From: Candidatus Omnitrophota bacterium | GTDB taxonomy: Bacteria > Omnitrophota > Gorgyraeia > 2-01-FULL-45-10 | Assembly (NCBI GenBank): GCA_043798375.1 | Contig: JAZDOS010000029.1 | Location: 62,955-126,954 of the forward strand | Length of the DNA stretch: 64,000 bases | Reading direction: 5' to 3' | Shown here: one piece after another, positions 372 to 61,345 of the stretch | How positions within the stretch are numbered: position 1 is the first letter of the stretch | Layout of the letters: each line of letters begins with the position of its first letter | The notes under the pieces: model-generated | What the model saw: only the letters and a program-made list of their open reading frames with translations | The model's database searches: none | What the model was told of the DNA's origin: nothing | Made by a program: the position numbers and the translations under genes

Positions 372-450
372 ATTTTTCGATACAGCAGTAAAATGTGCTG
401 TGTCGAGTGGTTCGCCACATCACATTCCGAAGAGCGATAAATTTCACAGG
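372..450. repeat. Short copy of the 61148-61345 element (opposite orientation)
   Basis: See the paired feature. Lies in the intergenic region immediately 3' of thiC. Confidence 0.6.
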
Positions 451-489
451 AGGCTGTATTAAAATAGGGCGTCTATAAGAGACTCGAGC

Positions 490-1185
490 ATGGAAAAGAA
501 ATGGTATCAAAAAACTGCTATACAAGTAGCCATTATAAGCGGGATTTTTATATTGATAGCTGCGATCGTACCATTATTTCTAACAAGCAATAAGATTGAC
601 ACTAGGAAGGATGCTTCGACTTTCCCGGTAAAAAGTGATAATAATAAAATTGTATCTGCTAAACAGACAGGTAATGGTAACACCATCATTCAAACGAATG
701 ATAATTCTATGGTCAATCTAACTATGCAAAAAACGCAATATGCCAATGTTGAAGTATTAAGAAAGCTTAAACCACTTGAGACCGGTAAAGATGTTAGTGA
801 GCTACCAAGCGGCATTTATGGATTTTCAGTTGCAAGGGCTATTGTTTATGGTGCACGATATCCTGGTGACAAATACCTTACGTTATCTAATAAAAAATAT
901 GGTAGTTTTTTCGAAATTCAAAAAGTAAAGAATGAATGTTTCGTAATAGGCTATATTGGGGATGAAGCCTATGCTAATATTGGTAAAGTTAAGACAGCAA
1001 ATAGCGTAGAGTTAACTCTGTCTCCCAGTCCATGGGGCTCCATAAAAAATGTTGTTTCTATTCCTCTTAAGGCCATATTGAAAATAGAAGATAGAGTCAT
1101 CGATATAGATGAAGATAAAAATACGACAGTTCTGGACATGGTTACGACTACCATACTGACAAATGTTTATGAACATGAAAAATAG
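490..1185 (+). CDS. Hypothetical membrane-anchored protein with one N-terminal TM helix
   Basis: 231-aa ORF with a hydrophobic segment at residues ~8-30. AT-rich (roughly 35% GC against ~50% flanks). No recognisable family. Confidence 0.45.
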   Translation: MEKKWYQKTAIQVAIISGIFILIAAIVPLFLTSNKIDTRKDASTFPVKSDNNKIVSAKQTGNGNTIIQTNDNSMVNLTMQKTQYANVEVLRKLKPLETGKDVSELPSGIYGFSVARAIVYGARYPGDKYLTLSNKKYGSFFEIQKVKNECFVIGYIGDEAYANIGKVKTANSVELTLSPSPWGSIKNVVSIPLKAILKIEDRVIDIDEDKNTTVLDMVTTTILTNVYEHEK

Positions 1186-1441
1186 AATTGATTGAAAAAA
1201 TAGGGGGATTAGGATTAGGGGACGATTTCAAAATTAAGATCAGATGTGTCCCCGATACTCAGGGACGGCGTAATAGGTAGGGAACTTTACGGGTGACGCG
1301 ACCGAGGCTTTTCGCATATGGGCGAGCATGGGATGGGGGTGCCCGCCGTTTAGGATTGCATAACCGTAAGCCCGCGGCCCAGTTTTGCTAGTCCGGTTGT
1401 AGGCAATCCTGGCGGACATTTATAGGATAGAGGGAAGAACA

Positions 1442-1636
1442 ATGGCGGATTGCAGTAATAAGAAGAAAAACTTGGCGATGTGCAATTGCACATATGCAGG
1501 ATGTCCGAGGCATGGCATATGCTGTGAATGTCTTGCCTATCACAGGAAGAATAGTGAGCTGCCGGCATGTTATTTCGATAAAGAGGCGGAAAGAACCTAT
1601 GACCGCTCTTTTAATAATTTCATGAGAAATAGATAG
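1442..1636 (+). CDS. Small cysteine-rich protein, putative metal-binding
   Basis: 64 aa with [22 protein letters not shown], nine Cys. Preceded by GGGAAGAACAATG. Family not recognised. Confidence 0.45.
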
Positions 1637-1648
1637 GGGTATTGAACA

Positions 1649-1978
1649 ATGCTATTAATTATTAAAAAGAAGGTGGACGAAAATATTCTCAAGAAAGTGG
1701 CTGAGGATCTGAACGGCTACGTGAAGGTTGTGGTGGATGTCCGCCGGAAGATTTTATCTGCCGGCGGAACAATGCATGTCGATGGAGAAAGACTGTTGCT
1801 GGAAGACGGCGGTAAGCAATCCGATTTGTGGGGTGGAGGTATAGATCTTGAGACCAATTCAATTGATTTTGACTCATTGATTAATTTAAGGCCAAGACAA
1901 GCCAATACCAGCCGCGAGGTTTTAAATCAGGATATACGCAAGCAGATGGAAACGATAATTCATAGCTTACTGAGGTAG
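1649..1978 (+). CDS. Hypothetical protein
   Basis: 109-aa ORF, tightly spaced after the Cys-rich ORF. No family recognised. Confidence 0.4.
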   Translation: MLLIIKKKVDENILKKVAEDLNGYVKVVVDVRRKILSAGGTMHVDGERLLLEDGGKQSDLWGGGIDLETNSIDFDSLINLRPRQANTSREVLNQDIRKQMETIIHSLLR

Positions 1979-1980
1979 CC

Positions 1981-2265: not shown

Positions 2266-2273
2266 CGGAAGAA

Positions 2274-2531
2274 ATGAAAACATACACCAGCTACCTCTGG
2301 TTCAACACGAAGAACAGGCAGGAGTTTATCAATATAACGCCTCAGGTGGAGGAAGCTGTCAAGAATAGCAAGGTAAAAGAGGGGTTGTGCCTCGTTAACG
2401 CCATGCACATAACGAGCTCCTGCTTTATCAACGACAAAAACTTGGAAACTTGGAAACTTGGGGACGGTTCTCGTGGTAATCCCGGACCTGTCCCCGGAGA
2501 GCGGGAAATGGCCGGTGGGGTTAAGACGTAA
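2274..2531 (+). pseudogene. Truncated YjbQ/UPF0047-family gene fragment (N-terminal ~58 aa only)
   Basis: The first 58 aa ([54 protein letters not shown]) are ~75% identical to the intact yjbQ-family gene at 3279-3695. After that the sequence diverges into unrelated residues (contains a GGAAACTTGG tandem) and terminates early. Confidence 0.6.
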
Positions 2532-2627
2532 AATTTTTTCTGGTCCCTGTCTACTGGAAACTAAACATGACAGCGATTAAGAAAATAGGGGACATGTCAT
2601 GCGGTCATTGGAGTTACAAAATACCTG

Positions 2628-2656
2628 TTGACAAGTGGATACTATTAGTGTATACT
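2628..2656 (+). promoter_or_regulatory. Sigma70-type promoter for the toxin-antitoxin operon
   Basis: TTGACA, 17-nt spacer, TATACT. GTATAC palindromes overlapping and downstream are plausible operator sites. RBS AGGAGGTG lies before ATG 2685. Confidence 0.5.
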
Positions 2657-2684
2657 TTTAGTAGATAGTAACAGGAGGTGGCAT

Positions 2685-2936
2685 ATGAGAGCACAGCATA
2701 TAAATATCACGATCCCGGCCAATTTGAAGATAAGGATCGATGAGGAATCAAGGCGGGAGCATATCGGGAGAAGCACTATTATCCAGAAAGCCGTCAGTCT
2801 ATATCTGGAACTTATAAAAAAGAAGAGAATCAGGGCGCTTCTTGCGGAAGGCTATAATGAAATGGCGGGGGAATCGCTTAAAATTACGCATGAATTTGAG
2901 TTGTTAGACGATGAGGCGATGAAGTATGCCGATTAA
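2685..2936 (+). CDS. Ribbon-helix-helix antitoxin (CopG/MazE-like)
   Basis: 83 aa. N-terminal INITIPANLKIRIDEESRREHIGRSTIIQKAV is a typical RHH fold. Overlaps the downstream toxin gene by 11 nt. Confidence 0.7.
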   Translation: MRAQHINITIPANLKIRIDEESRREHIGRSTIIQKAVSLYLELIKKKRIRALLAEGYNEMAGESLKITHEFELLDDEAMKYAD

Positions 2937-3270
2937 ACGCGGCGATATCTTCTATGTGGATTTAAATCCCGCAAAAGGTTCTGAGCAGGCAGGCAGGAGG
3001 CCTGTGCTTATCATTCAAAACGATATCGGTAATGCTCATGCCCCTACCGTTATTATCGCGCCGCTCACGACTAAGAAACTATCCAAAGAATATCCGACCA
3101 ACGTACACGTCAAGAAAGGTGTCGCCGGATTAAAAGAAGATTCAGCCGTGTTATTGTCGCAGGTTAGGACAATCGATAAAACAAGGTTGGGGAAAAGAGT
3201 GGGCGGCTTTCCGGCAGACATTATGCTTAAGGTTGATGAGGCGATCAAAATAAGCTTGGGGCTTGTCTAA
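2926..3270 (+). CDS. mazF: MazF/PemK-family type II toxin endoribonuclease
   Basis: 114 aa. [37 protein letters not shown] is the canonical PemK/MazF signature. Confidence 0.85.
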
Positions 3271-3278
3271 AAAAGAGA

Positions 3279-3695
3279 ATGAAAACATATACCCAATATC
3301 TCTGGCTCAACACGAAGAAACGGCATGAATTTGTGAATATAACCTCCGATGTCGAGGCCGCTGTCGGGAAGAGCGGCGTCAAGGAAGGCCTGTGCCTCGT
3401 CAACGCAATGCATATCACAGCCAGCGTATTTATCAACGACAATGAATCGGGGCTGCATCAGGATTTCAGCGAATGGCTGGAAAGGATAGCCCCTTACGGT
3501 AAAGACAAGTATAAACATAATTTGACCGGCGAGGATAACGCCGATGCGCACTTGAAGCGGACGATAATGGGGCGCGGGGTGGTGGTTGCGATTACGGGCG
3601 GTAAGCTCGATTTCGGGCCATGGGAAGCGATCTTCTACGGTGAGTTCGACGGGCAACGCAGGAAGCGCGTGCTTGTTAAAATAATCGGGGAGTGA
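3279..3695 (+). CDS. yjbQ: YjbQ/UPF0047 family protein (secondary thiamine-phosphate synthase enzyme family)
   Basis: 138 aa, full length. Conserved [56 protein letters not shown]. Confidence 0.8.
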
Positions 3696-3714
3696 CAGAG
3701 GAGGAAATGAAACC

Positions 3715-4923: not shown

Positions 4924-4929
4924 TGCCGG

Positions 4930-5003
4930 GCGAGCGTAGTTCAATGGTAGAATACCAGCTTCCCAAGCTGGCTACGGGGGTTCGATTCCCCTCGCTCGCT
5001 CCA
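4930..5003 (+). tRNA. tRNA-Gly (anticodon CCC)
   Basis: GCGAGCG..TAGTTCAATGGTAGAA (D arm), anticodon stem-loop CAGCT-TCCCAAG-AGCTG, T arm GGTTCGATTCC, acceptor 3' CGCTCGC, discriminator T and encoded CCA. Confidence 0.85.
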
Positions 5004-5018: not shown

Positions 5019-5492
5019 ATGCCGGTATTTATGACTGCGGGCTGCGCGACGGCGCCGGCCGCTACTCCTCCGATAGGGTCGCCCATCGCAACGCATGGAG
5101 CCGTAATTTATCAAAAAGAATATTTTACCTGGCCTGTTAAAGGCTGCATCCTGGCGCCATACGGCTCGAAAGTAGATAACATTATCAATAAAGGCGTAGA
5201 TATAAGGGTACCTGAAGGGTCAAGCGTCAAGGCGGCGAGGTCCGGCAGGGTTGTTTATTGCGATTCTTATTTGAAAGGGTTCGGCAAAACGATTATAATA
5301 GACCACGGCGAAGGATTGCAAACCGTGTATTCATACAACTCGGACATCCTGGTAAGTGTAGGCGCAAACGTGTCTAAGTATGAGACGATAGCAAAGGCGG
5401 GGAGGACCGGCAGGGCAAAAGAGTCGAGCCTGCATTTTGAGGTTCGTAAAAACGGCGAGCCGCAGAATCCGCTGTATTATTTACCCCGTTAG
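5019..5492 (+). CDS. M23-family metallopeptidase lipoprotein (LytM/NlpD-like)
   Basis: Start moved to ATG 5019 because the ORF-track start overlaps the tRNA. Lipobox LLLLMPVFMTAGC. M23 motifs GVDIRVPEGSSV..HFEVRKNGEPQNP. Confidence 0.75.
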   Translation: MPVFMTAGCATAPAATPPIGSPIATHGAVIYQKEYFTWPVKGCILAPYGSKVDNIINKGVDIRVPEGSSVKAARSGRVVYCDSYLKGFGKTIIIDHGEGLQTVYSYNSDILVSVGANVSKYETIAKAGRTGRAKESSLHFEVRKNGEPQNPLYYLPR

Positions 5493-5603
5493 AAAGGAAC
5501 TTTGTAACGGGACGGGGATGATAAAAATAAATAACATTTATTTAGAAAGGGTGGGCTTAAAGCCCCATCCTTTCTAACGGGGTTTACCGCGTTGAGGGAA
5601 ATT

Positions 5604-7238
5604 ATGTTCAGCGAACCGGTAGTGGGAGAAAAGTTTTTCGGAAGAGAAGAGGTGCTCGAGCTTTTAAATAAGCGCGTATCGGCCCTTAAAGAAGGCTACA
5701 GGCAGAACGTCGCCCTGACAGGCCCGAGCCTTGCCGGAAAATCCTCGATAATACTTCACTTCCTGCGCACAGTCAAGGAAGAGGGGTTCATACCTATATA
5801 TGTCGAGGTGGTTAAGGAAGATTTCAGGTCGTTTGCCGATAAGTTCATCGCAACCCTTTTATACAATGCGCTCCACAGGCTGGGCGAGGAATCGGATGTC
5901 GACATGGAGATGCTTATCGACAAGGCCGGTAAGGCGCTTCCCAGGACCGCCCATGCGATAAAGCAGGTAAACACGTCGATGGACCGCGGCGAATTCGACG
6001 AGGCATACATCGGGCTTCTCGCCCTGACGTCGGTCCTGAAAAATGAAGCCGGTTACTCATGCGTGGTGATCCTGGACGAATTCGACAACCTAGAGGCGCT
6101 CGGCATAAAGAACCCGTTCCTGGGCTTCGGCAAAGTGATAATGGTCCAGAAGGATACGATGTATATCGTTTCCAGCTCCAGGAACGAGGCGATAAAGAAG
6201 ATAATATCGGAAAAGCTCTCGCTCCTGTTCGGCAATTTCGAGGTGGTAAAGGTCCGGAACTTCGATCTTGTCACATCGCGCCAATTTCTGGATATACGAT
6301 TTGCCGGCTTCGAGATCAACGATTCCCTGAAGAAATTCTTCATAGCTTTTACCGACGGCAATCCTTTCTACCTCGACAGATTATCGGCCCGGGCCAGGGA
6401 GTTCTCCGCCGAAAAATTGTCGGGTGTCATTGAACCGGATTCTGTCGCGGATGCCATGCTGGAGCTAGTCTATAACGCGAACGGCCTTATCCATCAATAT
6501 CTGTTTAATTATCTATTAAGCCTGCTGGACACAAAAACAAGGGACAGCCACATGTCCATTCTCATATCTATAGCTGACGGCCGGAACAAGCGCACCGATA
6601 TAGCGCGCGCGATAAAGACTAAACAGGCTGAGGTTGCCAAGGGCCTTTTACGCCTTTCGGAGCTGGGGCTCGTATCGAAGAACGGCGTATTCTACGAGAT
6701 CGACGATGTGATGCTGGCGTTCTGGCTTAAACATGTCTACGAGCGAAGAAGGCAGCTTCTTGTTGACGGGACATTCGACAGATTGGCCTTATTCTCCCGG
6801 GAGATAAGGTCTTACATCTCGGCGTTCGAGGAAGAGTCCCGCGAAAAGACTCCCTCGGCAAGGCTCGCCGAGCTTTTCAACGCGTTCTCCAATGAACTCG
6901 TTTCCATCGAGTCAAAGAATATCAGGCTTCCTCACTTCACAAAGGTAGAGGTGAAGAATACGGCCGATTCGAAGGAGATCCTGGCGGCGTCATTCCGCGG
7001 CAATTTTTGGATAGTTCAGGCTTTTGAATCCTACGCGGCCGAAAGCGACGTCATAGGTTATATTAAGAATACAAAGGGGATAGTCGAAAAAATATCCAAT
7101 AAAATCATAGTGCCGTTAAGGGGCATCGATGAAAACGCGAAACTGCTCGCCAAGGAACTCAAGATATCGATCTGGGACGCCTCTACGGTAAACAGGCTGT
7201 TCGGTTACTATAACAAGAAAAGGATGATCACCCTTTAG
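5604..7238 (+). CDS. AAA+ ATPase of the archaeal-ATPase/DUF234 family
   Basis: N-terminal FFGREEVLELL..VALTGPSLAGKSS (Walker A) and DEFD (Walker B), typical of PF01637. The ORF track starts at a TTG. The first ATG (5604) is used here. Confidence 0.6.
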   Translation: MFSEPVVGEKFFGREEVLELLNKRVSALKEGYRQNVALTGPSLAGKSSIILHFLRTVKEEGFIPIYVEVVKEDFRSFADKFIATLLYNALHRLGEESDVDMEMLIDKAGKALPRTAHAIKQVNTSMDRGEFDEAYIGLLALTSVLKNEAGYSCVVILDEFDNLEALGIKNPFLGFGKVIMVQKDTMYIVSSSRNEAIKKIISEKLSLLFGNFEVVKVRNFDLVTSRQFLDIRFAGFEINDSLKKFFIAFTDGNPFYLDRLSARAREFSAEKLSGVIEPDSVADAMLELVYNANGLIHQYLFNYLLSLLDTKTRDSHMSILISIADGRNKRTDIARAIKTKQAEVAKGLLRLSELGLVSKNGVFYEIDDVMLAFWLKHVYERRRQLLVDGTFDRLALFSREIRSYISAFEEESREKTPSARLAELFNAFSNELVSIESKNIRLPHFTKVEVKNTADSKEILAASFRGNFWIVQAFESYAAESDVIGYIKNTKGIVEKISNKIIVPLRGIDENAKLLAKELKISIWDASTVNRLFGYYNKKRMITL

Positions 7239-8591: not shown

Positions 8592-9131
8592 TTGACATTT
8601 GTCATTGACCAGGAGGTATACGTGAATAAACTATGGGCGCCGTGGAGGAGCAAATACATTTACATGAGAAAGCGCAAGAGTTGCATATTCTGCGGGAGGC
8701 CTCACGGATCCGCCGGCGACAAGAAAAAACATATAATCTGCCGCGCAAAACACTCGTTCGCCATGCTCAACCTCTATCCTTACAATAACGGCCATGTCAT
8801 GGTGGCGCCCTGCAGGCACGTAAAGAGCCTCGAGCAGCTCTCCGACGTCGAACTGCTCGACGTCTTCAGGCTGCTGAACAGGATAAAATCGCTCATCGAT
8901 AAAAAGTTAAAGCCTCACGGCTACAATATAGGGATAAATCTCGGCAGGGTCGGCGGCGCCGGCGTTGCGGGACATGTCCACATCCACATAGTGCCGAGGT
9001 GGGCGGGCGATACGAATTTCATGCCGATCACCGCGGACACGAAGGTCATCTCGGAATCATTGGCGGCGATGTACAAACTGTTGAAGGTAAACCCCGTTAG
9101 AAAGGACGGGCTTTCTAACGGGGTGAAATAA
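8592..9131 (+). CDS. HIT-family protein (Ap4A phosphorylase/GalT-like branch)
   Basis: Histidine triad GHVHIHIVPR and the LWAPWRSKYI motif. GTG 8622 with upstream AGGAGG is an alternative start. Confidence 0.75.
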   Translation: MTFVIDQEVYVNKLWAPWRSKYIYMRKRKSCIFCGRPHGSAGDKKKHIICRAKHSFAMLNLYPYNNGHVMVAPCRHVKSLEQLSDVELLDVFRLLNRIKSLIDKKLKPHGYNIGINLGRVGGAGVAGHVHIHIVPRWAGDTNFMPITADTKVISESLAAMYKLLKVNPVRKDGLSNGVK

Positions 9132-10282
9132 TGCTGAAACGAAAAGACCTGGAAAAAAAAGAGGAGATCCTGGCGCCTTACGCCCAGAAGTCTAAATTCA
9201 CCAAAGGCCGCTGCCACAAAGAAGAGGAGCATGGCTACAGGTCATGCTACCAGCGCGATAAAGACAGGATCATATATTCGACCGCCTTCCGCCGGCTCGA
9301 ATATAAGACCCAGGTTTTCGTCAACCATGAAGGGGATTACTACCGCACGAGGCTCACCCACACGCTGGAAGTTTCGCAGATAGCGAAGTCGATAGCCAGG
9401 GCTCTCGGGCTCAATGAGGACCTGGTAGAAGCGATAAGCCTCGCTCATGACCTCGGCCATACGCCATTCGGCCATTCGGGCGAGGACGCCCTCCATGAGT
9501 TGATGCGGGAACACGACGGGTTCGATCATAATACGCAAGGCTTAAGGGTCGTCGATTTCCTGGAACAGCGCTATCCCGATTTTCCCGGCTTAAACCTGAC
9601 CTATGAGGTCAGGGAAGGTATAATAAAACATTCGACGCCGTTCGACCGGCCGAGGCCGGCGATCCCGTTCGAGTCAAAAGGCTCACCGCTTCTCGAGATC
9701 CAGGCGGTCGATATTGCCGACGAGATAGCTTACGATAACCACGACCTTGATGACGGGATAACGAGCGGCCTTATCAAAGAGGACGATTTAAGGGAAGTGC
9801 GGCTCTGGTCGGAGAGGGAGAGGGAGATAAGGAAGCTCTATCCGCGCATAAAGGGAGAAGTGAAGAAATACCAGATCATCCGGTCTCTCATCAATTGCCA
9901 GGTCACTAACGTGATCAACAATACCGAAGAGAAACTCAAGAGGCTCAAGATCAAGAATACATCTAGTGTAATAAAGACCCCTGAAAGGATCGTAACGGTT
10001 TCAAAGGATATGCAGCTCTTGAGATCGCCGATGAGGGAATTCCTCACGGAAAACCTATATCAGCATTACAGGGTCGTGCGGATGTCGAATAAGGCTTATC
10101 GGTTCATAACGAGCCTCTTCAACATCTACCTGGATAAGCCGGAGCAGCTGCCGCCGACGACCCTGGGCCGCCTCAAAAAAGAAGAGCCTCATCGCGTCAT
10201 CTGTGATTACATCGCCGGCATGACCGACCGCTACGCGCTCGACGAATACAAGAAGTTCTTCGAACCATATGAGAGGGTGTAG
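9131..10282 (+). CDS. dgt: dGTP triphosphohydrolase-like HD-domain protein
   Basis: YQRDKDRIIYSTAFRRLEYKTQVF..RTRLTHTLEVSQIAKS..HDLGHTPFGHSGE is the Dgt-family signature. Confidence 0.85.
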   Translation: MLKRKDLEKKEEILAPYAQKSKFTKGRCHKEEEHGYRSCYQRDKDRIIYSTAFRRLEYKTQVFVNHEGDYYRTRLTHTLEVSQIAKSIARALGLNEDLVEAISLAHDLGHTPFGHSGEDALHELMREHDGFDHNTQGLRVVDFLEQRYPDFPGLNLTYEVREGIIKHSTPFDRPRPAIPFESKGSPLLEIQAVDIADEIAYDNHDLDDGITSGLIKEDDLREVRLWSEREREIRKLYPRIKGEVKKYQIIRSLINCQVTNVINNTEEKLKRLKIKNTSSVIKTPERIVTVSKDMQLLRSPMREFLTENLYQHYRVVRMSNKAYRFITSLFNIYLDKPEQLPPTTLGRLKKEEPHRVICDYIAGMTDRYALDEYKKFFEPYERV

Positions 10283-10291
10283 AGGACGCTA

Positions 10292-15936: not shown

Positions 15937-15954
15937 TAGTTAAATAAATTTTTC

Positions 15955-16161
15955 GGGTCCTGCCGAAGGAATCTCCGCGAGGGATTGTGCTCAAGCGGGA
16001 CGTTAAAATCGCGAGCGGGCACGGTTTTTTGGCCCTTACCAATACAACCTGCGAGGTTAAACGGTATAAAACTACCGGCAAACCTCGCAGGTTGTATTGG
16101 TGATGCCAAAAAGGGCGAGCAATTTTACCTGGAAAGAAAAGCCGAGGGAGCGGCAGGACCC
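15955..16161. repeat. Nested inverted-repeat element, copy A
   Basis: Shares the core GGGATTGTGCTCAAGCGGGACGTTAAAATCGCGAGCGGGCA..CCAATACAACCTGCGAGGTT-[22 nt]-AACCTCGCAGGTTGTATTGG with 26690-26970. Flanked by GGGTCCTGCCG at 15955-15965 and CGGCAGGACCC at 16151-16161. Confidence 0.6.
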
Positions 16162-16249
16162 GAAAAATTTAATGTGAGTCAATTCGTGATCTTGGAACAA
16201 TAGCACAAAATTGATTTTTGAATCGGCGTATGGTATAATGCCCGATATT

Positions 16250-19559: not shown

Positions 19560-19760
19560 CCCGTTAGACCTCCTATTTAAGTAATCTAAGCCCCGTCAAT
19601 GGGTCTAACGGGACTCATCCCGTTAGAACCTCAATCTTGAAAATAAAAAAATAACACATTTTTTGCAATAAAACCCGTTTATATAATAAATACATATTCT
19701 GTTAACCCCGTTAGAAATGTAATTTCTAACGGGGTTAAAGGTTCTAACGGGACTCATGTT
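19559..19760. repeat. Cluster of CCCGTTAGA(A/C)C-type palindromic units
   Basis: CCCGTTAGACC..GGGTCTAACGGG, CCCGTTAGAACC..GGTTCTAACGGG and CCCCGTTAGAAATGTAATTTCTAACGGGG within a 200-bp intergenic region. Confidence 0.6.
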
Positions 19761-20584
19761 CGTATGCCCTCCAGTTCTTTAATACTCTTTTCAACTATGG
19801 GTAGGCCCACGACCCTCGTCTCCATGACATACGCGGCCAGCAATGACTTATCGCAAATCATATTGATAATGCGCGGAATACCGCCGGAAAATTTGTATAT
19901 CGTCTCTATGGCGTCGTCGGGAAAATTTATCTCGCCGTTAGAACCGGCTACGGACAGCCTGTGATATATATATCTTCCGACTTCATCTTTGTCCAGAGGC
20001 GTTATGTGGAACCTCACCGCGATGCGCTGCTTCAGCTGTTTCAGGTTCGGCGAGTCTATTTTTACTTTAAGTTCAGGTTGTCCCACCAGAACTATCTGGA
20101 ACAGCTTCTCCTTGTCGGTCTCGAGATTGGAGAGCATCCGTATCTCTTCCAGTATGGAAGGCTTCAGGTTCTGGGCCTCATCGATTATCAGTATAACATT
20201 GTTTCCCCTTGACAGCTCCTCAAGAAGAAAACCGTTGAGCTGGCGGAGCATCGACCCCTTGTTCTTCCGCTCCACAGAAAGGCCGTAATCCTCTATTATC
20301 GACTGCAGGAGTTGAAGCTCGGGCAGGTTTGAGTTAAATATAAAAGCGCTTTTTGTCCTGGCATCGAGCTGGTTCAGGATCGCCCTGCAAAGGGTTGTTT
20401 TCCCGGCCCCTATCTCGCCGGTTATCTCTAAAAAACCCTTGCGCTCTTTTATGCCGTATAACAGGTGGGAAAACGCTTCCTTATGGACACGGCTCAGGAA
20501 GAGAAAGTTCGGATCGCTTGTGACATTGAACGGCCTTTCCTTAAGGCCAAAGAATTCTCTATACATACCGATTATAGTATACAC
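19754..20584 (-). CDS. ExeA/GspA-like AAA ATPase
   Basis: FFGLKERPFNVTSDPNFLFLSRVHKEAFSHLLYGI..GEIGAGKTTLCRAIL..LIIDEAQNL is the ExeA-family signature. Confidence 0.8.
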   Translation of the reverse strand: MYTIIGMYREFFGLKERPFNVTSDPNFLFLSRVHKEAFSHLLYGIKERKGFLEITGEIGAGKTTLCRAILNQLDARTKSAFIFNSNLPELQLLQSIIEDYGLSVERKNKGSMLRQLNGFLLEELSRGNNVILIIDEAQNLKPSILEEIRMLSNLETDKEKLFQIVLVGQPELKVKIDSPNLKQLKQRIAVRFHITPLDKDEVGRYIYHRLSVAGSNGEINFPDDAIETIYKFSGGIPRIINMICDKSLLAAYVMETRVVGLPIVEKSIKELEGIRT

Positions 20585-20684: not shown

Positions 20685-21053
20685 ATGTGGGACGGAATAA
20701 ACAGAAGAAAGTTTCCCAGGGCCAACTATAAATGCCTGATAAGCATAAAGAAACGCCTTACGGCGAAGACGATATCGACCGAGACGGAGAATATAGGCGC
20801 GGGCGGCATATGCGTCATCATAAAAGAAGACCTGGGCCTCTTTCAGGGCGTTGATGTTGAGCTGTACCTGGATGAGAACCGTCCTCCGATAAAGTCGGGC
20901 GGCACGGTGGTATGGGTGGTGAAGAAGTCTTTTTCCAAGAAGGGGAGCTATTTATACGATACGGGCATCGAATTCATAGACATAAGGCCGGAAGACAGGG
21001 AAAAGATATCCGAGCGGGTTGAAGAGATCCTTAAAAATCAGAGGCGTAAATAG
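20685..21053 (+). CDS. PilZ domain protein (c-di-GMP receptor), single domain
   Basis: RRKFPRANY..(RxxxR) and ENIGAGGICV (D/NxSxxG). 122 aa. Upstream TTGCTT-17-TATAAT and AAAGGAGAG RBS. Confidence 0.75.
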   Translation: MWDGINRRKFPRANYKCLISIKKRLTAKTISTETENIGAGGICVIIKEDLGLFQGVDVELYLDENRPPIKSGGTVVWVVKKSFSKKGSYLYDTGIEFIDIRPEDREKISERVEEILKNQRRK

Positions 21054-21092
21054 AAGAAACGCCTGGAAGAAACGCCTGGAAGAAACGCCTGG
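21054..21092 (+). repeat. 3 x 13-bp perfect tandem repeat GAAGAAACGCCTG
   Basis: Three exact tandem copies lying immediately 5' of a consensus promoter. Confidence 0.7.
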
Positions 21093-21098
21093 CACGGC

Positions 21099-21127
21099 TT
21101 GACAAATCATAGAAATTGTGTTATACT
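21099..21127 (+). promoter_or_regulatory. Sigma70-type promoter
   Basis: TTGACA, 17 nt, TATACT. GGAAGGGAGGTG RBS upstream of ATG 21167. Confidence 0.5.
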
Positions 21128-21166
21128 TGTGTAAATTAAAATCAGGAAGGGAGGTGAAATTAAAAA

Positions 21167-21505
21167 ATGAAAAACTTGTTAAAGGGTATAATTATATGTG
21201 TTGCTATATTGATGGTACTTAATATAGCCAATGCATGCTATGCTCAAGATATGGGTAAGAAGATCTACAGAGGCCTAGCGAATATTATAACGGGATGGAT
21301 AGAGCTTCCAAAGAATATATACGACACCAGCGTGGAAGATAATCCTCTCTCTGGTTTAACGATCGGTTTGGCGAAAGGCGTTGGGATGACGATAGTGCGC
21401 ACAGGCGCAGGAGTGTACGAAACGGTTACATTCCCGTTCCCGATTCCGGAAGGCTACGCACCGGTTCTGGAGCCAGAATTTGTTTTCAATAAGGCTGCGA
21501 AATAA
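21167..21505 (+). CDS. Exosortase-system-associated secreted protein (TIGR04073-like)
   Basis: Signal peptide followed by RGLANIITGWIELPKNIYDTSVEDNPLSGLTIGLAKGVGMTIVRTGAGVYETVTFPFP, which matches my recollection of that family. Confidence 0.55.
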   Translation: MKNLLKGIIICVAILMVLNIANACYAQDMGKKIYRGLANIITGWIELPKNIYDTSVEDNPLSGLTIGLAKGVGMTIVRTGAGVYETVTFPFPIPEGYAPVLEPEFVFNKAAK

Positions 21506-21515
21506 GCCCAATCCT

Positions 21516-21560
21516 GATTTCATGGATAAAAATAAGGGGATAGAAGAGATTTTATCCCCT
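21516..21560 (+). terminator. Rho-independent-terminator-like hairpin
   Basis: ATAAAAATAAGGGGATAGAAGAGATTTTATCCCCTTATTTTTAT: 15-bp perfect stem ATAAAAATAAGGGGA/TCCCCTTATTTTTAT (loop TAGAAGAGATTTTA) with a T-rich 3' side. Confidence 0.6.
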
Positions 21561-21671
21561 TATTTTTATCCGCCTTCGCAAACAGTAAGCAATAGAGCAG
21601 GTGCTTCGGCGGATTATATATCTTGATTAAACGGAATAATCACTATATAATACCAACAAAAAGAGGATAGC

Positions 21672-22022
21672 GTGACAGAGAGAAGAAAGTTTTTACGATT
21701 TGAAACCGCGTTGAACGCGATCTGTGACATGGTAAGTCATAATCACAGGGCTTCATATAAAGTAAGAAACATCTCCAAGGAGGGCGCCCTTCTTCTTGTA
21801 GATAAGAAACTCAGGGAAGGGGCCGAAATAAAGCTTTCGATGGACGTGCCCGGAGATAACGTTCCGATATTCGCGTCATGCGAAGTCGCATGGCAGAAAG
21901 GCGGCGAGAATTGCAATCTGTATGAAACCGGCGTCAGGTTCAAGAGTATCGACGGCCCGGACAGGGGAAGGCTCCTCGAATATATTTATCTGCAGTGGTT
22001 AAAATTACTGGATAAAAAATAA
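21672..22022 (+). CDS. PilZ domain protein, single domain
   Basis: GTG start. RRKFLRFE.. and RNISKEGALL motifs. 116 aa. Confidence 0.7.
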   Translation: MTERRKFLRFETALNAICDMVSHNHRASYKVRNISKEGALLLVDKKLREGAEIKLSMDVPGDNVPIFASCEVAWQKGGENCNLYETGVRFKSIDGPDRGRLLEYIYLQWLKLLDKK

Positions 22023-22157
22023 TATGAGCCCCGTTAGAAAATTTTCCTAATTCTACGTTATTTAATGCCACCGTATACATGAATTCTTTACTTAAATCAT
22101 GATTTAGAAATTTGTAAATTTTCTAACGGGGTGAGCGAAGAAAAGAGGCAAGATTAA

Positions 22158-22511
22158 ATGGAAAATGAGAAACCACAAAAGCCTGCTGAAACAGCTCCGA
22201 AAACCAAGGCCCCTCAGGCCGAAGCTAAGCCGGCCGAGAAGAAGGCTCGGGTGAAGAAGGAGAAGCCGGCAAACTGCGCGGGCTGTAACAAGTCCATAAG
22301 AAAAAAGCGCTGGTATTACAGGAACGGCAAAACTTACTGCACGAAGAGGTGCTGGCAGACGACTGAGAAAAAGATTAAAGAGGAGCATCTGGCGGCCGAA
22401 AAAGCAGCTGCTGAAAAGGCAGCCGCCGAGAAAGCCGCTCAAGAGAAGGCCGCAGATGAAAAAGCCCAAACAGATAAAGCGGCCGACGACACTCCGAAGC
22501 TTCAGGGGTAA
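22158..22511 (+). CDS. Lys/Ala-rich zinc-ribbon protein
   Basis: CAGCNKS..x15..CTKRC (four Cys) flanked by KP/AK-rich N-terminus and AAEKAAAEKAAAEKAAQEKAADEKA repeats. Possibly nucleic-acid binding. Confidence 0.45.
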   Translation: MENEKPQKPAETAPKTKAPQAEAKPAEKKARVKKEKPANCAGCNKSIRKKRWYYRNGKTYCTKRCWQTTEKKIKEEHLAAEKAAAEKAAAEKAAQEKAADEKAQTDKAADDTPKLQG

Positions 22512-22555
22512 AAGCCTCAAGCATTCAAACCGTATCTTAAGAACCTTCCTTATAT

Positions 22556-23011
22556 ATGGCTTCTCGGATAAATAAACCCATCCTGGTAAGCGCATGCCTT
22601 GCGGGCATAGACTGTACTTACAGGGGCAGGAACAAGCTCGTACCCTCTATTAAAAAAATGGTCGATGACGGCATTGCCATACCCGTGTGCCCTGAGGTCA
22701 TGGGTGGGATGGGAATCCCCCGCGAAAATTCCGAGATTGTTGGCGGCGGCGGTATGGACGTCCTGATGAAGAGGGCTCGCGTTATAACAATCTCAGGCAA
22801 GGATGTTACCAAAATTTATATTAAAGGCGCGAAGGCAGTCCTTGCGATCGCCGGAATTTTCGGCGTCAGGAAGGCCATTTTAAAATCGAAAAGCCCGGCC
22901 TGCGGGGCGGGGCGGATCTACGACGGGTCTTTTACGAAGAAGCTTAAAAACGGATCCGGCGTAACGGCAAGCCTGCTTTGTCAAAAAGGCGTAAAGGTCT
23001 ATAGTGCTTGA
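22556..23011 (+). CDS. DUF523 family protein (TudS-like Fe-S protein)
   Basis: PILVSACLAGIDCTYRG..CPEV..SPACGAG is the conserved DUF523 Cys pattern. Confidence 0.65.
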   Translation: MASRINKPILVSACLAGIDCTYRGRNKLVPSIKKMVDDGIAIPVCPEVMGGMGIPRENSEIVGGGGMDVLMKRARVITISGKDVTKIYIKGAKAVLAIAGIFGVRKAILKSKSPACGAGRIYDGSFTKKLKNGSGVTASLLCQKGVKVYSA

Positions 23012-23044
23012 AAATTTAGGTAAAAAGGTGGTAGAATAGGGGTC

Positions 23045-23395
23045 ATGGACAAAGAATTTTGCCTGTTCTGCGGAATAGCGAAAAAAGAGATCCCTGCGAA
23101 GATCGCCTATGAGGACGACGCGGCATTGGCATTTGAAGACATAAATCCCAAGGCGCCGGTCCATCTTCTCGTCATACCGAAGCTGCATATAGAAAGGGTG
23201 TCGGATATCCGCGAAGACGGCTTTGAGCTGGTGGGCCATCTGATATCGATAGCAAATAGACTTGCCGAATCCAGGAAGATCAAGGAATCGGGATATAGGC
23301 TAATTTTAAACTGCAACAAAGACGCCGGTCAGGAAGTTTTTCACCTGCACCTGCATCTTCTCGGCGGAAGGAAGTTTTCATGGCCGCCGGGGTAA
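23045..23395 (+). CDS. HIT-family nucleotide hydrolase (Hint-like)
   Basis: CLFCGI..DINPKAPVHLLVIPK..HLHLHLLGG histidine triad. Confidence 0.85.
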   Translation: MDKEFCLFCGIAKKEIPAKIAYEDDAALAFEDINPKAPVHLLVIPKLHIERVSDIREDGFELVGHLISIANRLAESRKIKESGYRLILNCNKDAGQEVFHLHLHLLGGRKFSWPPG

Positions 23396-23414
23396 CGATA
23401 GGAGCCTGACATAA

Positions 23415-23780
23415 ATGGCCGCTAATGAAAGAAGGTCTTTTCCCCGTATAAAGGATGAGGGGCTGTCTCTTAAGCTTAATGCGGGTGATTTCGACACCAC
23501 AACCCATACCCTGAATATAAGCGCATCGGGAATATACTGCAAGGTTGACAGGGAAATGCCTCTCATGTCCAGGGTGCGGGTAGCGCTGGAGCTGCCGGAG
23601 TCATCAGGCGAAAACCGGTCCGTAAAAAACCTCGAGGTCGACGGCGTGGTAGTGAGGGGACACCCTGTCATAATCGACGGCGTGATAAAACATTACGATA
23701 TCGCGATATTTTTCGACAGCCTCTCCCCGAAAAACAGGGATATGCTCCAGGATTATATCTCAAGAACAAAAAAGAAATAG
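23415..23780 (+). CDS. PilZ domain protein, single domain
   Basis: RRSFPRIK and LNISASGIYC motifs. 121 aa. Confidence 0.7.
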   Translation: MAANERRSFPRIKDEGLSLKLNAGDFDTTTHTLNISASGIYCKVDREMPLMSRVRVALELPESSGENRSVKNLEVDGVVVRGHPVIIDGVIKHYDIAIFFDSLSPKNRDMLQDYISRTKKK

Positions 23781-23789
23781 GCGGTTCTT

Positions 23790-24272
23790 ATGTTCACGCT
23801 CGTAGGGCTTTTCTTTATACTGCTTCTTTCGATGATACTCTATATGCTTTACAGAACCGAGCTTACCGCAACGAAGAATAACCGCCATCACGCAAAGGTC
23901 GAGGAGTATTGGACGGGAAAAGAGAGAAGAAAATATACCCGTTTCAAAAAAACGCTGGACGTCATATACACAGTCGCGAAGAAGCCGCATCTTTCCAGTC
24001 GCGGCCATACGATAGATATATCCGAAGGCGGCATGAAACTGGTCCTCGACGAAAAGCTTCCGAAGGGCGCAATAATGGACCTCAAAATTTCGATTCCCGG
24101 CTCATCCCAGGACACGGATGTGGAGGGCGAAATCATCTGGAGCGAAGAGGCGAATTACGATAAACTCTCCGGCAAAAGGCAGTTCTATTACGGCATAAAG
24201 TTCCTGTACATCAAAGAACCGTCCGGAAAACATTTAAGCGACTACATCCGCTCTATCTCCGTACAACCTTAA
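23790..24272 (+). CDS. Membrane-anchored PilZ domain protein
   Basis: N-terminal TM LVGLFFILLLSMILYML, then RRKYTRFK and IDISEGGMKL. Confidence 0.7.
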   Translation: MFTLVGLFFILLLSMILYMLYRTELTATKNNRHHAKVEEYWTGKERRKYTRFKKTLDVIYTVAKKPHLSSRGHTIDISEGGMKLVLDEKLPKGAIMDLKISIPGSSQDTDVEGEIIWSEEANYDKLSGKRQFYYGIKFLYIKEPSGKHLSDYIRSISVQP

Positions 24273-26660: not shown

Positions 26661-26689
26661 TAACGCTTCGATTAATTTCGGCGATTTTA

Positions 26690-26970
26690 GGGTCCTGCCG
26701 TCCTTCGATTTAACTCAAGGACATGCCCCGAGCGTAGTCGAGGGGCCGCTCCCTCACGGAATCCCCGTAGGGATTGTGCTCAAGCGGGACGTTAAAATCG
26801 CGAGCGGGCATGGTTTTTTGCCCTTACCAATACAACCTGCGAGGTTTGCTGGCAGCTATCTACCTGTTAACCTCGCAGGTTGTATTGGCTATGCAAAAAG
26901 AGCGAGCGATTTTACCGAGCAAAATTTTCCTCGCTGGGGAAAATTTTGCGATCCCGCGAAGCACAATCCC
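26690..26970. repeat. Nested inverted-repeat element, copy B
   Basis: Same core as 15955-16161, with the 20-bp stem CCAATACAACCTGCGAGGTT/AACCTCGCAGGTTGTATTGG but a different 22-nt loop. Additionally bounded by imperfect TIRs GGGATTGTGCTCAAGCGGGACG (26771) and CGATCCCGCGAAGCACAATCCC (26949). Confidence 0.6.
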
Positions 26971-27075
26971 GAAAGGGGATTCTTTTTAGCAGCGAAAAAA
27001 TTCGATTTCATTTACATTGACGTTGCTTTTTTTGTATGCTATATTTAATCGAAATGCGAAACGAGGTTTTGACCC

Positions 27076-27462
27076 ATGACAAAAAAAGAAGAGTTCATTG
27101 ATAGAAGAGGCTCTATTCGGCTGAGGATCCCCGTAAGCATTGCCTATCAAACATCAGGCAATGGCAGAGTTCATACGGTTACGGCCAAAGACATATCCGC
27201 CGAAGGCGCGAGGTTCGAGGCCCACGACAAGCGCCTCAAAGAATCCGATATTCTGGATATGAAGATAGGCATCCCTGAGATATCCGGAGACGGGGTCCGC
27301 GCAACGGGCGCCGTTATATGGAAAAAACGTTTATCGCTTGAGGATAAGTCGCCGTTCGATATCGGCATCGAATTCGGCGAGATAGCGGAAGACGACAAAA
27401 ACGGTTTTCTTAAATTTTTATGTGATTTTATATATAAACTACCGGAGGAAAAAAAGAGATGA
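27076..27462 (+). CDS. PilZ domain protein, single domain
   Basis: DRRGSIRLRIP and AKDISAEGARF motifs. 128 aa. Confidence 0.7.
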   Translation: MTKKEEFIDRRGSIRLRIPVSIAYQTSGNGRVHTVTAKDISAEGARFEAHDKRLKESDILDMKIGIPEISGDGVRATGAVIWKKRLSLEDKSPFDIGIEFGEIAEDDKNGFLKFLCDFIYKLPEEKKR

Positions 27463-35873: not shown

Positions 35874-35975
35874 CGCGTCAGATTTTTGTTGCAATTTATT
35901 TTAATACGTATATAATACTTTCCATCATCCCCTGGGGATAGGCTAGGGGATATTTTTTAACGGGTAAGAAATAAG

Positions 35976-59048: not shown

Positions 59049-59057
59049 CGGGCGGGA

Positions 59058-60932
59058 TTAACTCTCGCGAAGCTGTTTTTCGGCGTCGATGACATCGCGG
59101 TTTATCAGCCGGATCGCCTTTTTTATCCTCTGGTCGAGGACGGCCGAGATCGGCGCGTCTTCTATTTCGCGCAAGATCTGTATCGCCATCCTGAAGTAGC
59201 GTATGACCTCGCCTTCATCGGTATCGGTAAGTTCAAGGATCCGCGCGAACTTCATCCCATGCATCCATCCTTCCAGCGCCTTGGCGAGATTGAAATGGGG
59301 AATCTTACTGAAAGGGCGTATCACGTGCCTTGTTTCCTTATGGCGTATTCTTTCGCTGAATGTTTCGCAGATCGACTTAAGGTATTGGCTTGACCTTGAA
59401 AGGGACGGCAGGCGCTGATTTTTGCGGGGCTCAAAGACCGCGGCTGCGGCGATAACGCCCATGCTAATCTCGTCGAGATCCTCAAAAATCCCTCCGTCAT
59501 ACAGCTCGGCAAGCAATAGTTCGTATCCGTAGACGGCCTTGGCGAACTCGCCCTTAGCGGTAAGCCTGCCTTCAGCGATATGCCCCATCTCCTTCAATAA
59601 CGCCAGCTTCGACTCCATCAGCTTCAGGGCCTCCTTCTGCTGGTGCGGCCTCGTCTGGAAATAATGCATCGAGAGGGGATAGATATTGAAGAGTTCTTCC
59701 CTGTATTTCTGGTATAGATTGAGCATGGTAGCGTAAGAGGCGTTAAATTGGCTGGAGACGTTCTCGGGCTTCCCGTAGATTATACGTCTTACCTCTTCAA
59801 GGCGTATCCTTCTTGGATTAATCCTGCTGTAGACGAAACCCTCCTTATCGATACCGCGCCTGCCGGCGCGGCCGGCCATCTGATAGAAGTCGCGCGTTTT
59901 GAGCGTCCTTATGTAACTGCCGTAAAACTTCTTCAACTCATCGAATACGACAGAACGGCTCGGCATGTTAATACCAAGCGCGAAGGTCTCCGTAGTGAAT
60001 ATGACTTTCAAAAGACGGCTCGTGAAGAGCCTTTCAACCGCCTCCTTCAGCGTAGGAAGCATCCCGGCGTGATGAAAGGCGATGCCGCGCTCTATCAAAG
60101 ACCGCATCGCTATAGCGCTCTTCTCGTGCATGAGGTCAAATCGCCGGCAAAGGTTTTCATATAATGAAAGGATTTTGGAACGTTCCGCGGAATCCAGAAA
60201 ATCGTGGTTATACAGCTCCGCCGCCAGATATTCCGCCCGTTTTCTGCCGAAGACAAAATATATGCACGGAAGGCCGTCCTTATATTCGATATACTTTATG
60301 AGTGAATTCGTCCTGTTAGGCTTATGCCCGTGGAATTTACGCAATTTATTGATATCGTCGACGACCTGGTTATTCTCCTGATAGAAGAAGTGGAGGGGAA
60401 CGGGCCTCTCGTTTTCGATTACGACCTTGACCGTCTTCTTATGTATCGATTCGATCCATTTGGCGAACTCGCCGATATTCGGTATCGTCGCGGAGAGGCA
60501 AAGGATATTCATGTGGGCCGGCAGGAATATGAGCGACTCTTCCCACACGGTGCCGCGCTCGGGGTTGTCTATATAATGGACTTCGTCGAATATTATCCAG
60601 GAATATTTCTTCAGGCTTTCCGGCTCGTCGAGGACCTTGTTGCGGAATATCTCGGTAGTCATTATAAGAATGGGGGCGTCGGCATTAAGCGAGACATCGC
60701 CGGTCAGTATCCCGATCGAATCTTTGTAATCGACCGTGAAATCGCGGAACTTCTGGTTCGAGAGCGCCTTGATAGGCGCGGTATAGATGACGCAGGTCTT
60801 ATCCCGAAGGGCGGTCTCGATGACGTGCTCGGCTATGGCGGTCTTGCCCGCGCCCGTAGGGGCAGAGACGATGACCGAGTGGCCGTTATTGATATGCCCG
60901 ATCGCCTCCTCTTGAAACCTGTCGTATACCAT
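59058..60932 (-). CDS. DEAD/DEAH-box Ski2-like helicase
   Basis: SAPTGAGKT Walker A, DEVHY (motif II), SAT, QMAGRAGRRG (motif VI). Confidence 0.8.
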   Translation of the reverse strand: MVYDRFQEEAIGHINNGHSVIVSAPTGAGKTAIAEHVIETALRDKTCVIYTAPIKALSNQKFRDFTVDYKDSIGILTGDVSLNADAPILIMTTEIFRNKVLDEPESLKKYSWIIFDEVHYIDNPERGTVWEESLIFLPAHMNILCLSATIPNIGEFAKWIESIHKKTVKVVIENERPVPLHFFYQENNQVVDDINKLRKFHGHKPNRTNSLIKYIEYKDGLPCIYFVFGRKRAEYLAAELYNHDFLDSAERSKILSLYENLCRRFDLMHEKSAIAMRSLIERGIAFHHAGMLPTLKEAVERLFTSRLLKVIFTTETFALGINMPSRSVVFDELKKFYGSYIRTLKTRDFYQMAGRAGRRGIDKEGFVYSRINPRRIRLEEVRRIIYGKPENVSSQFNASYATMLNLYQKYREELFNIYPLSMHYFQTRPHQQKEALKLMESKLALLKEMGHIAEGRLTAKGEFAKAVYGYELLLAELYDGGIFEDLDEISMGVIAAAAVFEPRKNQRLPSLSRSSQYLKSICETFSERIRHKETRHVIRPFSKIPHFNLAKALEGWMHGMKFARILELTDTDEGEVIRYFRMAIQILREIEDAPISAVLDQRIKKAIRLINRDVIDAEKQLRES

Positions 60933-61147
60933 AGAGTTATTATAGCGTATTATCAGGATTAATTAAATAGCAAATAAAAGGGTCACACCCATTTATTTTC
61001 GCGCTATAAGCTAACTAATTTTTTCGTCTCTCATCGAAGGCGGAACTTTTGTGGTCGCCTTATACATGGCGTTAGCTGGGCGGCTACGGAAGAATACGGC
61101 GGCATGTGAAGCTCCACCGCCTCTCGGCGTTGTGCTTCGCGGGATCG

Positions 61148-61345
61148 CGAAATTTTTCGATCTACTGTAATGTGATGTGGCGACGTGGTGAGCAGGGCCT
61201 GTAAATTTTTGTGGATTGGTCCGCTATAGTTAAATAGCGGCGGCACAAAAATTTACCTGGAGCGAGGCCGCCGCTGGAGCGGCCGAGCGTCCCTGCGAAC
61301 CACTCGACACAGCACATTTGACCGGTGGATCGAAAAATTTCGCTA
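61148..61345. repeat. Inverted copy of the 372-450 element, carrying an internal hairpin insertion
   Basis: The reverse complement of 372-450 (AAATTTTTCGATACAGCAGTAAAATGTGCTGTGTCGAGTGGTTCGCCACATCACATTC) matches CGAAATTTTTCGAT..AATGTGATGTGGCGA-[~115-nt insert with 13-bp stem GTAAATTTTTGTG/CACAAAAATTTAC]-GAACCACTCGACACAGCACAT..CGAAAAATTTCG. Confidence 0.6.

Follow-up and report, generated by a model that had tools for sequence, protein, structure and literature searches.

The ERIC or IRU repeats of Enterobacteria and Vibrio are imperfect palindromes of ~100-200 nt that lie in transcribed intergenic regions and are conserved across species; their size variants have internal deletions or extra blocks at fixed internal positions, and we know of no transposase dedicated to them. 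The Correia elements of Neisseria (CREE or NEMIS) and other miniature inverted-repeat transposable elements (MITEs) are ~100-160 nt long, have terminal inverted repeats, exist in long and internally deleted short forms, and are found next to genes as co-transcribed, hairpin-forming sequences; for Correia elements, a TA duplication is clear and copies are found in either orientation. The attC sites of integrons are imperfect palindromes that fold in a strand-specific manner, with irregularities that are fixed and a centre that varies; they are located directly after open reading frames (ORFs) in one orientation and have the core site GTTRRRY. REP units are found within 20 bp of the 3' ends of ORFs, and their termini often supply stop codons (PMC3733652). 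For REPIN-RAYT systems, long vertical persistence with a conserved sequence is documented (PMC3116915, bioRxiv 10.1101/2021.07.10.451892). Here, we analyzed a stretch of 64,000 nt from a Candidatus Omnitrophota bacterium (contig JAZDOS010000029.1; hereafter, the window), which contains two copies of a hairpin-forming palindromic repeat, one near each end. Palindromic repeats of this kind in Omnitrophota most likely belong to the known class of REP-, ERIC- and Correia-like repeats, and no specific named family fits them.

The element resembles REP/BIME and REPIN-RAYT elements in being extragenic and near ORF 3' ends, with termini that supply stop codons (PMC3733652). Its mosaic clusters and its hairpins of inverted halves are also similar, as is its long vertical persistence with a conserved sequence. 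However, REP units are 20-40 nt long with a GTAG or CGTC tag, whereas the full Omnitrophota element is an imperfect palindrome of ~175-200 nt, in which the halves of a stem, M1, are not themselves palindromes. We rejected membership among the GTAG-tagged REPs, as GTAG was located directly 5' of M1 in only 13 of 81 copies. A limited and crude test found no RAYT (HUH tyrosine transposase) near copies in the sampled loci or in the window. The likeness to ERIC/IRU is one of organisation only; the sequences appear unrelated and the phylum is different. Unlike ERIC/IRU, the Omnitrophota termini contain a stop codon, the stop-adjacent copies have one polarity, and shells of M1 and a second module, X, are nested around a three-way junction. 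Unlike the Correia elements, the family shows no demonstrable duplication but a strong polarity bias, and we found no related autonomous insertion sequence. With MITEs, the family shares terminal inverted repeats, small size, non-coding sequence, multiple copies and presence/absence at orthologous sites; a transposase-encoding relative with the same termini was not found in the ~680 kb sampled.

The two copies and the anatomy of the element

Copy A lies at 368-444 on the + strand, directly 3' of thiC. Copy B lies at 61150-61340 on the - strand, inverted relative to copy A, between a Ski2-like helicase gene and pfkA, where promoters diverge. These refined limits run from terminal repeat to terminal repeat. 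When both regions were aligned, copy A was the reverse complement of copy B minus one internal block, i.e., 115 nt of copy B (61181-61295) had no counterpart in copy A. The 24-mer AAATGTGCTGTGTCGAGTGGTTCG occurred exactly twice in the 64 kb, at 391-414 (+) and 61296-61319 (-), and none of 100 shuffles produced any match to it at up to 3 mismatches. The 14-mer CGCCACATCACATT was found at 413-426 (+) and 61169-61182 (-), and CGAAATTTTTCGAT was present at each end of copy B, while a version with 2 mismatches lies at 368-381. Counted from the sequences, identity between the two copies was ~87% over the 47-nt 5' part; overall, it was ~83% with the extra segment excluded. A sequence-only reading of the window had proposed inverted copies of one element at both ends, and these blocks bear the proposal out: the exact 24-nt and 14-nt matches contain G and C, and the similarity is thus not restricted to A/T tracts.

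The element is bounded by 13-nt terminal inverted repeats with the consensus GTAAAATTTTTCG ... CGAAAAATTTTAC, including GTA/TAC. Its strand is defined by AATGTGCTG. On this strand, the order is GTAAAATTTTTCG, ~10 variable nt, the M1 5' half (AATGTGCTGTGTCGAGTGGTTCG), CAGGG and the centre, followed on the 3' side by CCCTG, the M1 3' half (CTCACCACRTCGCCACATCACATT), ~10 variable nt and the terminal repeat CGAAAAATTTTAC. Stem M1 is highly conserved, and its irregularities were identical in every copy: a bulged purine, a small internal loop (UCG/CUC) and two mismatches, C.U and U.C. At the centre, a three-way junction runs in the order AC, hairpin H1, UCSSU, hairpin H2 and AASG up to CCCTG; it exists in two versions with the same layout and different hairpins. 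Version 2 was found in 38 copies and version 1 in 26 (copy B included); two further copies were short, one was intermediate and eight were truncated. Copy B is a standard full version-1 element. It was predicted to fold into a single long branched hairpin with a minimum free energy of -111.8 kcal/mol (z = -8.8); the predicted fold of copy A had -25.3 kcal/mol (z = -3.1). The sequence-only reading had also described a 13-bp stem and a GC-rich hairpin within the 115-nt block, and both are present. H1 of copy B is the GC-rich hairpin GGCCGC-TCCAGCG-GCGGCC at 61266-61284, and H2 (61201-61256) contains the 13-bp A/T-rich stem GTAAATTTTTGTG/CACAAAAATTTAC at 61244-61256 / 61201-61213. The stems of the inner hairpins, e.g., GTAAATTTTTGTG and GTAAAATTTCTCG, resemble the terminal repeat. 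The two copies and their parts are as follows.

368-444, + strand: copy A, a short and most likely internally deleted member; its junction GGTTCG/CCACATC is identical to that in locus L027, which holds the sole other short copy.
368-379, + strand: 5' terminal inverted repeat of copy A (TAAAATTTTTCG), identified from the terminal-repeat consensus.
392-426, + strand: stem M1 of copy A, with the 5' half AATGTGCTGTGTCGAGTGGTTCG and a 3' half reduced to its distal part, CCACATCACATT.
435-444, + strand: degenerate 3' terminal repeat of copy A (CGATAAATTT; family consensus CGAAAAATTT).
61150-61340, - strand: copy B, full length with a version-1 centre, aligned with 22 other version-1 copies.
61296-61318, - strand: M1 5' half of copy B.
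61181-61295, - strand: the 115 nt missing from copy A, comprising the closing stem CAGGG/CCCTG, H1, H2 and the proximal M1 3' half CTCACCACGTCG.
61169-61192, - strand: M1 3' half of copy B (CTCACCACGTCGCCACATCACATT).

Downstream of the 3' terminal repeat of copy A, AGGAGG is present at 448-453. Copy B is antisense to most of the window and is located upstream of the helicase's own promoter. A Pfam domain check of the neighbouring genes recovered the C-terminus of ThiC (ThiC_Rad_SAM, E = 6.9e-40), a DEAD and DSHCT helicase, and PFK.

The ThiC Pfam domain stops at residue 98 of the 122 in-window residues, and a 24-aa tail (window 296-367) reaches the TAA of the repeat. This tail holds the palindrome GGGACTGTCCC twice, at 307-317 and 343-353; counting both strands, GGGACTGTCCC had 5 hits compared with 0.6 expected. 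It may represent another small repeat whose insertion lengthened the ORF.

Distribution, pairing and position at gene ends

Copies were gathered by exact match to 20 nt of the M1 core. In the species-representative genome collection, this 20-mer was found in 30 stretches, 29 of which came from nine Candidatus Omnitrophota metagenome-assembled genomes (MAGs) with up to eight core-bearing copies per MAG. The remaining stretch was a Chloroflexota contig without the surrounding features, and one such hit is about the chance expectation for a 20-mer in that DNA. The 20-mer was also present in 59 metagenome stretches, among which two long contigs held five copies each, and it did not occur in the viral contigs searched. 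After the removal of duplicates, ~83 distinct copies were obtained across Omnitrophota MAGs and metagenomes; the loci that carry them are given below by number. The proposal of a dispersed, miniature, hairpin-forming family, also made in the sequence-only reading, is upheld by the terminal inverted repeats and by presence/absence at orthologous sites. With the Rfam 15 covariance models at the gathering threshold, the tRNA-Gly at 4930 was the sole match in the whole window; at E up to 10, no family was recovered, and the best local hits were miRNA models with E = 0.85 to 8. Kinship with tRNA or tmRNA was ruled out, the tRNA-Gly at 4930 being the only tRNA in the window. A full-text literature search for repeats in Omnitrophota found no description, and the hairpin repeat family is apparently undescribed.

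Several copies coincided with runs of N (L008, L018, L022, L023 and L026) or with contig ends (L005, L010, L012, L031, L039 and L083), suggesting that short-read assembly of Omnitrophota genomes breaks or goes astray at the repeats.

Alignment of the copies supported the consensus structure. For version 2, 98.3% of the consensus-structure cells formed standard pairs, and 13 pairs had changes on both sides compared with 6.4 in column shuffles (0/500 reached 13) and at most two in slid controls. For version 1, double changes were found in 11 of 45 pairs. The compensatory changes included GC-to-CG and UA-to-AU flips; that is, the stems covary, and the loops and junction nucleotides are conserved. 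Non-Watson-Crick cells were rare and symmetric, with 8 G.U and 11 A.C among ~2400 paired cells, and an excess of G.U as a sign of RNA-level selection on the sense strand was not seen in these cells. In 43 of 47 full copies, the antisense RNA was predicted to be ~6 kcal/mol more stable than the sense RNA. In the folding model, this advantage probably results from the conserved C.U and U.C mismatches, which turn purine-purine on the other strand, and the bias may bear on which strand is recognised.

The elements are anchored at gene ends. Of 65 testable copies, 42 had a same-strand ORF of at least 80 codons that stopped at their 5' boundary; in 37 of these, the stop codon coincides with the TAA of the terminal repeat and begins a single base ahead of the A run. 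In copy A, the TAA at 368-370 in the 5' terminal repeat is the stop codon of thiC (ORF 44..370). The mirror case, i.e., a minus-strand ORF ending at the 3' boundary, was seen in 1 of 47 copies, though the palindromic repeat offers the same TAA. On the downstream side, the 3' boundary was testable in 47 copies; 18 of them had a same-strand start codon within 80 nt past the 3' repeat, and this start was 12-35 nt downstream in 16 of the 18. The other copies were followed by a promoter-like sequence or, past a purine-rich spacer of 16-23 nt, by another element. With ORFs of at least 200 codons, the gene contexts were '++' in 30 cases versus '--' in 5; the polarity is strong, not absolute. We also counted gene orientation in the loci around the 42 stop-adjacent copies, 13 of which had too little sequence. 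The remaining long ORFs were mostly on the strand of the element in 27 of the 29 informative loci, and two loci were mixed. Because the genes in these loci are heavily co-oriented, coupling to transcription and coupling to replication are not separable. A scan for intrinsic terminators found no site at copy A and none on copy B's own - strand. Near copy B, two small + strand hairpins of the flanking modules, at 61136-61151 and 61022-61045, were terminator-like, and one of them overlaps the 3' terminal repeat of copy B by 2 nt.

Orthologous sites differed in their content. One site was empty in L059 and filled in L063. The window is empty at 10283, whereas the orthologous site in L041 is filled; the window gene ending at 10282 stops with TAG and its L041 orthologue stops at a TAA inside the repeat, and the two proteins have the same last residue. 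The last residue also agreed between L001 and L059, without an M1-family element, and L039 and L053, with one; a single gene end was empty in L001, carried a different tandem repeat in L059 and held an M1-family element in L039 and L053. Another site carried version 1 in L065 and version 2 in L029, L082 and L010. Between L070 and L035, an M1 shell was exchanged for an X shell plus two more elements, with identical outer boundaries and flanks. A copy in L029 was decaying, in addition to the truncated copies (8) elsewhere.

The tandem repeat in L059 (6270-6440) consists of three 55-nt hairpin units (TAGGCCGATATCAGAGATATCGGCACTTAGTAAACAGGTGGCAGAATAAA) that start at the gene stop codon.

In the closest relatives (L090, L091 and a P0010 contig), pfkA is directly preceded by a DUF3786 gene; a single relative contig includes the helicase too, and there the DUF3786 gene is located between the helicase and pfkA. 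The window has no DUF3786 gene; its 481-nt gap (60933-61413) holds copy B and the 3' halves of X and of a third module, suggesting that the gene is absent from the window through a repeat-associated rearrangement or deletion. As the relatives carry DUF3786 upstream of pfkA, the empty-site comparison at this locus is not clean.

The shells around the centre are interchangeable and nested. Module X was located inside M1 in L001 and L015, outside M1 in L005, L013 and L021, and enclosing or enclosed by M1 in L014; it can also take the place of M1, as at the orthologous site with M1 in L070 and X in L035. Sequences like the third module type follow family members in L004, L009, L015 and L018, and related elements are nested within one another in L014, L016, L018 and L076. 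Both modules are present in part beside copy B.

61118-61149, - strand: 3' half of module X (CGCGATCCCGCGAAGCACAACGCCGAGAGGCG), abutting copy B, with the 5' half absent; a repeat match links 26940-26976 and 61120-61156.
61017-61059, - strand: 3' half of the third module type (GGCGACCACAAAAGTTCCGCC...GACGAAAAAATT), in a truncated neighbour element.

The terminal repeat AAATTTTTCG is shared with an otherwise unrelated long hairpin element at 15946-16170 and, in a degenerate form, with one at ~26680-27004. The sequence-only reading had regarded the repeat as an independent third family of the window. This part did not hold: because the terminal repeat and the neighbouring modules are common to other long hairpin elements in the window, the M1 family is one branch of a modular, nested superfamily.

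Both of these long elements follow gene ends. The element at 15946-16170 has AAATTTTTCG...CGAAAAATTT as its ends and a predicted fold of -117.7 kcal/mol (z = -11.5), and a near-consensus promoter (TTGATT, 17 nt, TATAAT, ~16210-16238) comes after it. The element at ~26680-27004 has only degenerate versions of AAATTTTTCG/CGAAAAATTT at its ends. The two have 86-nt and 55-nt internal blocks in common, and their internal modules had no exact match in the 91 fetched loci.

Proposed propagation of the elements and probable origin of copy A

With moderate confidence, we favour the explanation that these are non-coding repeats of the REP/ERIC/Correia type, that an enzyme recognising one folded strand propagates and homogenises them as DNA, and that copy A is a deletion derivative. 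We propose that a trans-acting enzyme would copy or recombine the elements as DNA. They would land at gene 3' ends, where the terminal repeat would supply a TAA stop, and would cluster beside, and nest inside, other elements with the same termini. Transcribed together with the upstream gene, each element would form a long hairpin downstream of the stop codon, ahead of the next promoter or ribosome-binding site. As the asymmetric features of M1 do not vary, they would imply that a protein recognises one folded strand, as single-stranded DNA or as RNA.

Several observations weigh against this explanation. Crude tests detected neither a transposase gene nor a RAYT-like one with elements on its flanks or anywhere in the ~680 kb of sampled DNA, and a motif scan of 2049 open frames for transposases was negative. 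A search for an autonomous relative with the same termini gave a sole pair of terminal repeats more than 400 nt apart, which encloses ordinary genes; by N-terminal sequence, the ORFs between elements look like housekeeping genes. A target-site duplication is not demonstrable, since the TA at the flank is its own complement and prolongs the palindrome, and the empty sites at hand are too diverged for a duplication to be read. The right flank is mostly TAC and not the TAA or TAG expected from insertion at a stop codon, and on this ground we rejected a simple model of TA duplication at stop codons. A palindromic terminus does not account for the fact that stop-adjacent copies are almost exclusively in sense orientation; this bias suggests a strand-specific mechanism or an RNA-level role. 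Elements at orthologous sites were 85-97% identical, compared with 45-68% at the third codon positions of adjacent genes; conservation above that of synonymous sites requires selection or continual homogenisation and does not fit neutral mobile DNA. The conservation of the M1 core is partly an effect of ascertainment, because only exact matches to it were gathered. Yet the other half of the stem, on the 3' side, was outside the search key and is likewise nearly invariant, and a query with this 3' half recovered 62 exact and six slightly diverged 5' halves.

The main alternative, which is possible but tentative and not exclusive of the DNA-level repeat explanation, is a structured RNA with a function for the host. 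Here, selection would maintain the element at gene ends as a module of 3' untranslated or intercistronic regions, and its presence in many copies would be secondary. It may act as a stabiliser of mRNA 3' ends, as an RNase III-type processing site, as a terminator independent of a U tract, or as a site for a global RNA-binding protein. The pairing data bear on this alternative in both directions: loops and junction nucleotides are conserved, stems covary up to GC-to-CG flips, and two versions of the centre build the same three-way-junction layout from different helices, but G.U pairing is almost absent with no excess over A.C (8 vs 11), and the antisense is predicted to fold better in 43/47. 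In terms of position, a bias of 42 to 1 for sense orientation among stop-adjacent copies and 3' ends that lie 12-35 nt ahead of the next start (16/18) or ahead of a promoter are consistent with an RNA signal, whereas copy B lies between divergent promoters and not at a transcript 3' end, neither copy registers as an intrinsic terminator in the sense orientation, and no Rfam family matches. Conservation far above that of synonymous sites would be expected of such a module; however, truncated and decaying copies are common, and one orthologous site may be empty or may hold another element, shell or centre, which argues against a locus-specific requirement. The sequence-only reading had offered a mobile miniature element or a conserved regulatory RNA module. 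The repeat family was confirmed, and the second option, taken as a structured module, also fits the covariation and the conservation across species.

A more doubtful possibility is a strand-specific system that spans the lineage, in which a dedicated protein recognises the invariant, asymmetric M1 and the three-way junction of one folded strand, and the family would be more than tolerated mobile DNA. The elements would then be either selected punctuation between genes, anchored at stop codons, or REPIN-like, vertically inherited replicators with a new partner enzyme. If this were true, punctuation elements could control 3'-end formation, processing or translational coupling.

As for the length difference between the two copies, comparison of the sequences suggests that copy B is most likely canonical and that copy A was most likely derived by internal deletion. 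Direct repeats juxtaposed by a hairpin are the classical setting for slipped-strand deletion, and TCGC is present at both edges of the 115-nt segment, at 61295-61298 and 61180-61183. These microhomologies would be brought together by the hairpin, and slippage between them would remove the 115-nt centre and yield copy A. In the long form, CGAGTGGT of the M1 5' half pairs with ACCACRTCG of the M1 3' half. The short form keeps CGAGTGGT without ACCACRTCG, leaving an orphan half-stem in a loop, and CGAGTGGT is accordingly unpaired in the M1 of copy A. The intermediate copy, L031, retains CAGGG/CCCTG around a tiny loop and is a smaller central deletion. The second short copy, L027, is at a non-orthologous site in another genome and has the same junction as copy A; the shared junction could reflect recurrent deletion at one microhomology or a propagating short subfamily.

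The sequence-only reading had instead taken the ~80-nt form as basic and copy B as an element interrupted by a secondary 115-nt hairpin insertion, which we consider improbable. Nesting does occur in the superfamily (L014, L016, L018 and L076), the inner hairpin stems resemble the terminal repeat (GTAAATTTTTGTG and GTAAAATTTCTCG), and a short form with an identical junction in two different genomes would suit a basic form. However, 64 copies have such a centre, against two short copies and one intermediate, and the intermediate is accounted for by a second, smaller central deletion. The supposed insert contains ACCACRTCG, the complement of the CGAGTGGT left unpaired in the short form, and an independent insert is not expected to bring the complement of a loop in its host. 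Its edges are the TCGC microhomologies and not terminal repeats with a target duplication; that direct repeats bound the missing block favours deletion over insertion. The spacer subtypes of the two short copies are also found in the long copies L020, L026 and L031.

That the elements are integron-like attC recombination sites marking gene cassettes is very improbable: they share with attC an imperfect palindrome, conserved extrahelical features, a variable centre and a single-orientation position after stop codons, but the identity is contradicted by the terminal sequences (AAATTTTTCG, not GTTRRRY) and by the gene context, in which the flanking genes are syntenic housekeeping genes (thiC, pfkA and an argH-like gene), only ~4 such sites occur among ~60 window genes without a cassette array, and no integrase was found among the ORFs scanned.

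Other repeats of the window and the meaning of the family

Further repeats and duplicated genes were observed elsewhere in the window. A pair consisting of a ribbon-helix-helix antitoxin and a MazF/PemK toxin (2685-3267) is located between a truncated UPF0047 gene (2274-2528), which covers only the first 36 profile positions, and a complete one (3279-3692). The two UPF0047 genes have a 165-nt direct repeat in common with 74% identity, and the region (2273-3695) looks like a toxin-antitoxin insertion with partial duplication of its target. A separate short repeat family, CCCCGTTAGAAA / TTTCTAACGGGG, occurs as direct and inverted pairs at 5475-5609, 9086-9110, 19697-19761, 22020-22131 and 35951-35971, and some of its copies flank an AAA_22 ATPase gene (19757-20584, - strand). 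Within ~7 kb, the window also encodes five small PilZ proteins of a single domain each, at 20685, 21672, 23415, 23790 and 27076 (regions 20685-24269 and 27076-27459), and several of their genes have similar promoter-like upstream sequences (CTTGACAAATCA...).

For the uncultured Omnitrophota, there is essentially no description of non-coding DNA; the family provides a sequence-defined, structurally constrained element with several to many copies per genome in a wide range of species. Its practical weight is that repeats of this sort break MAG assemblies, and its evolutionary weight is that the elements mark sites of rearrangement. A stop codon in the terminal repeat, near-exclusive polarity, conservation above that of synonymous sites and swaps of modules together make the family a clean test case for asking if REP-like elements act as parasites, as domesticated RNA signals or in both ways.

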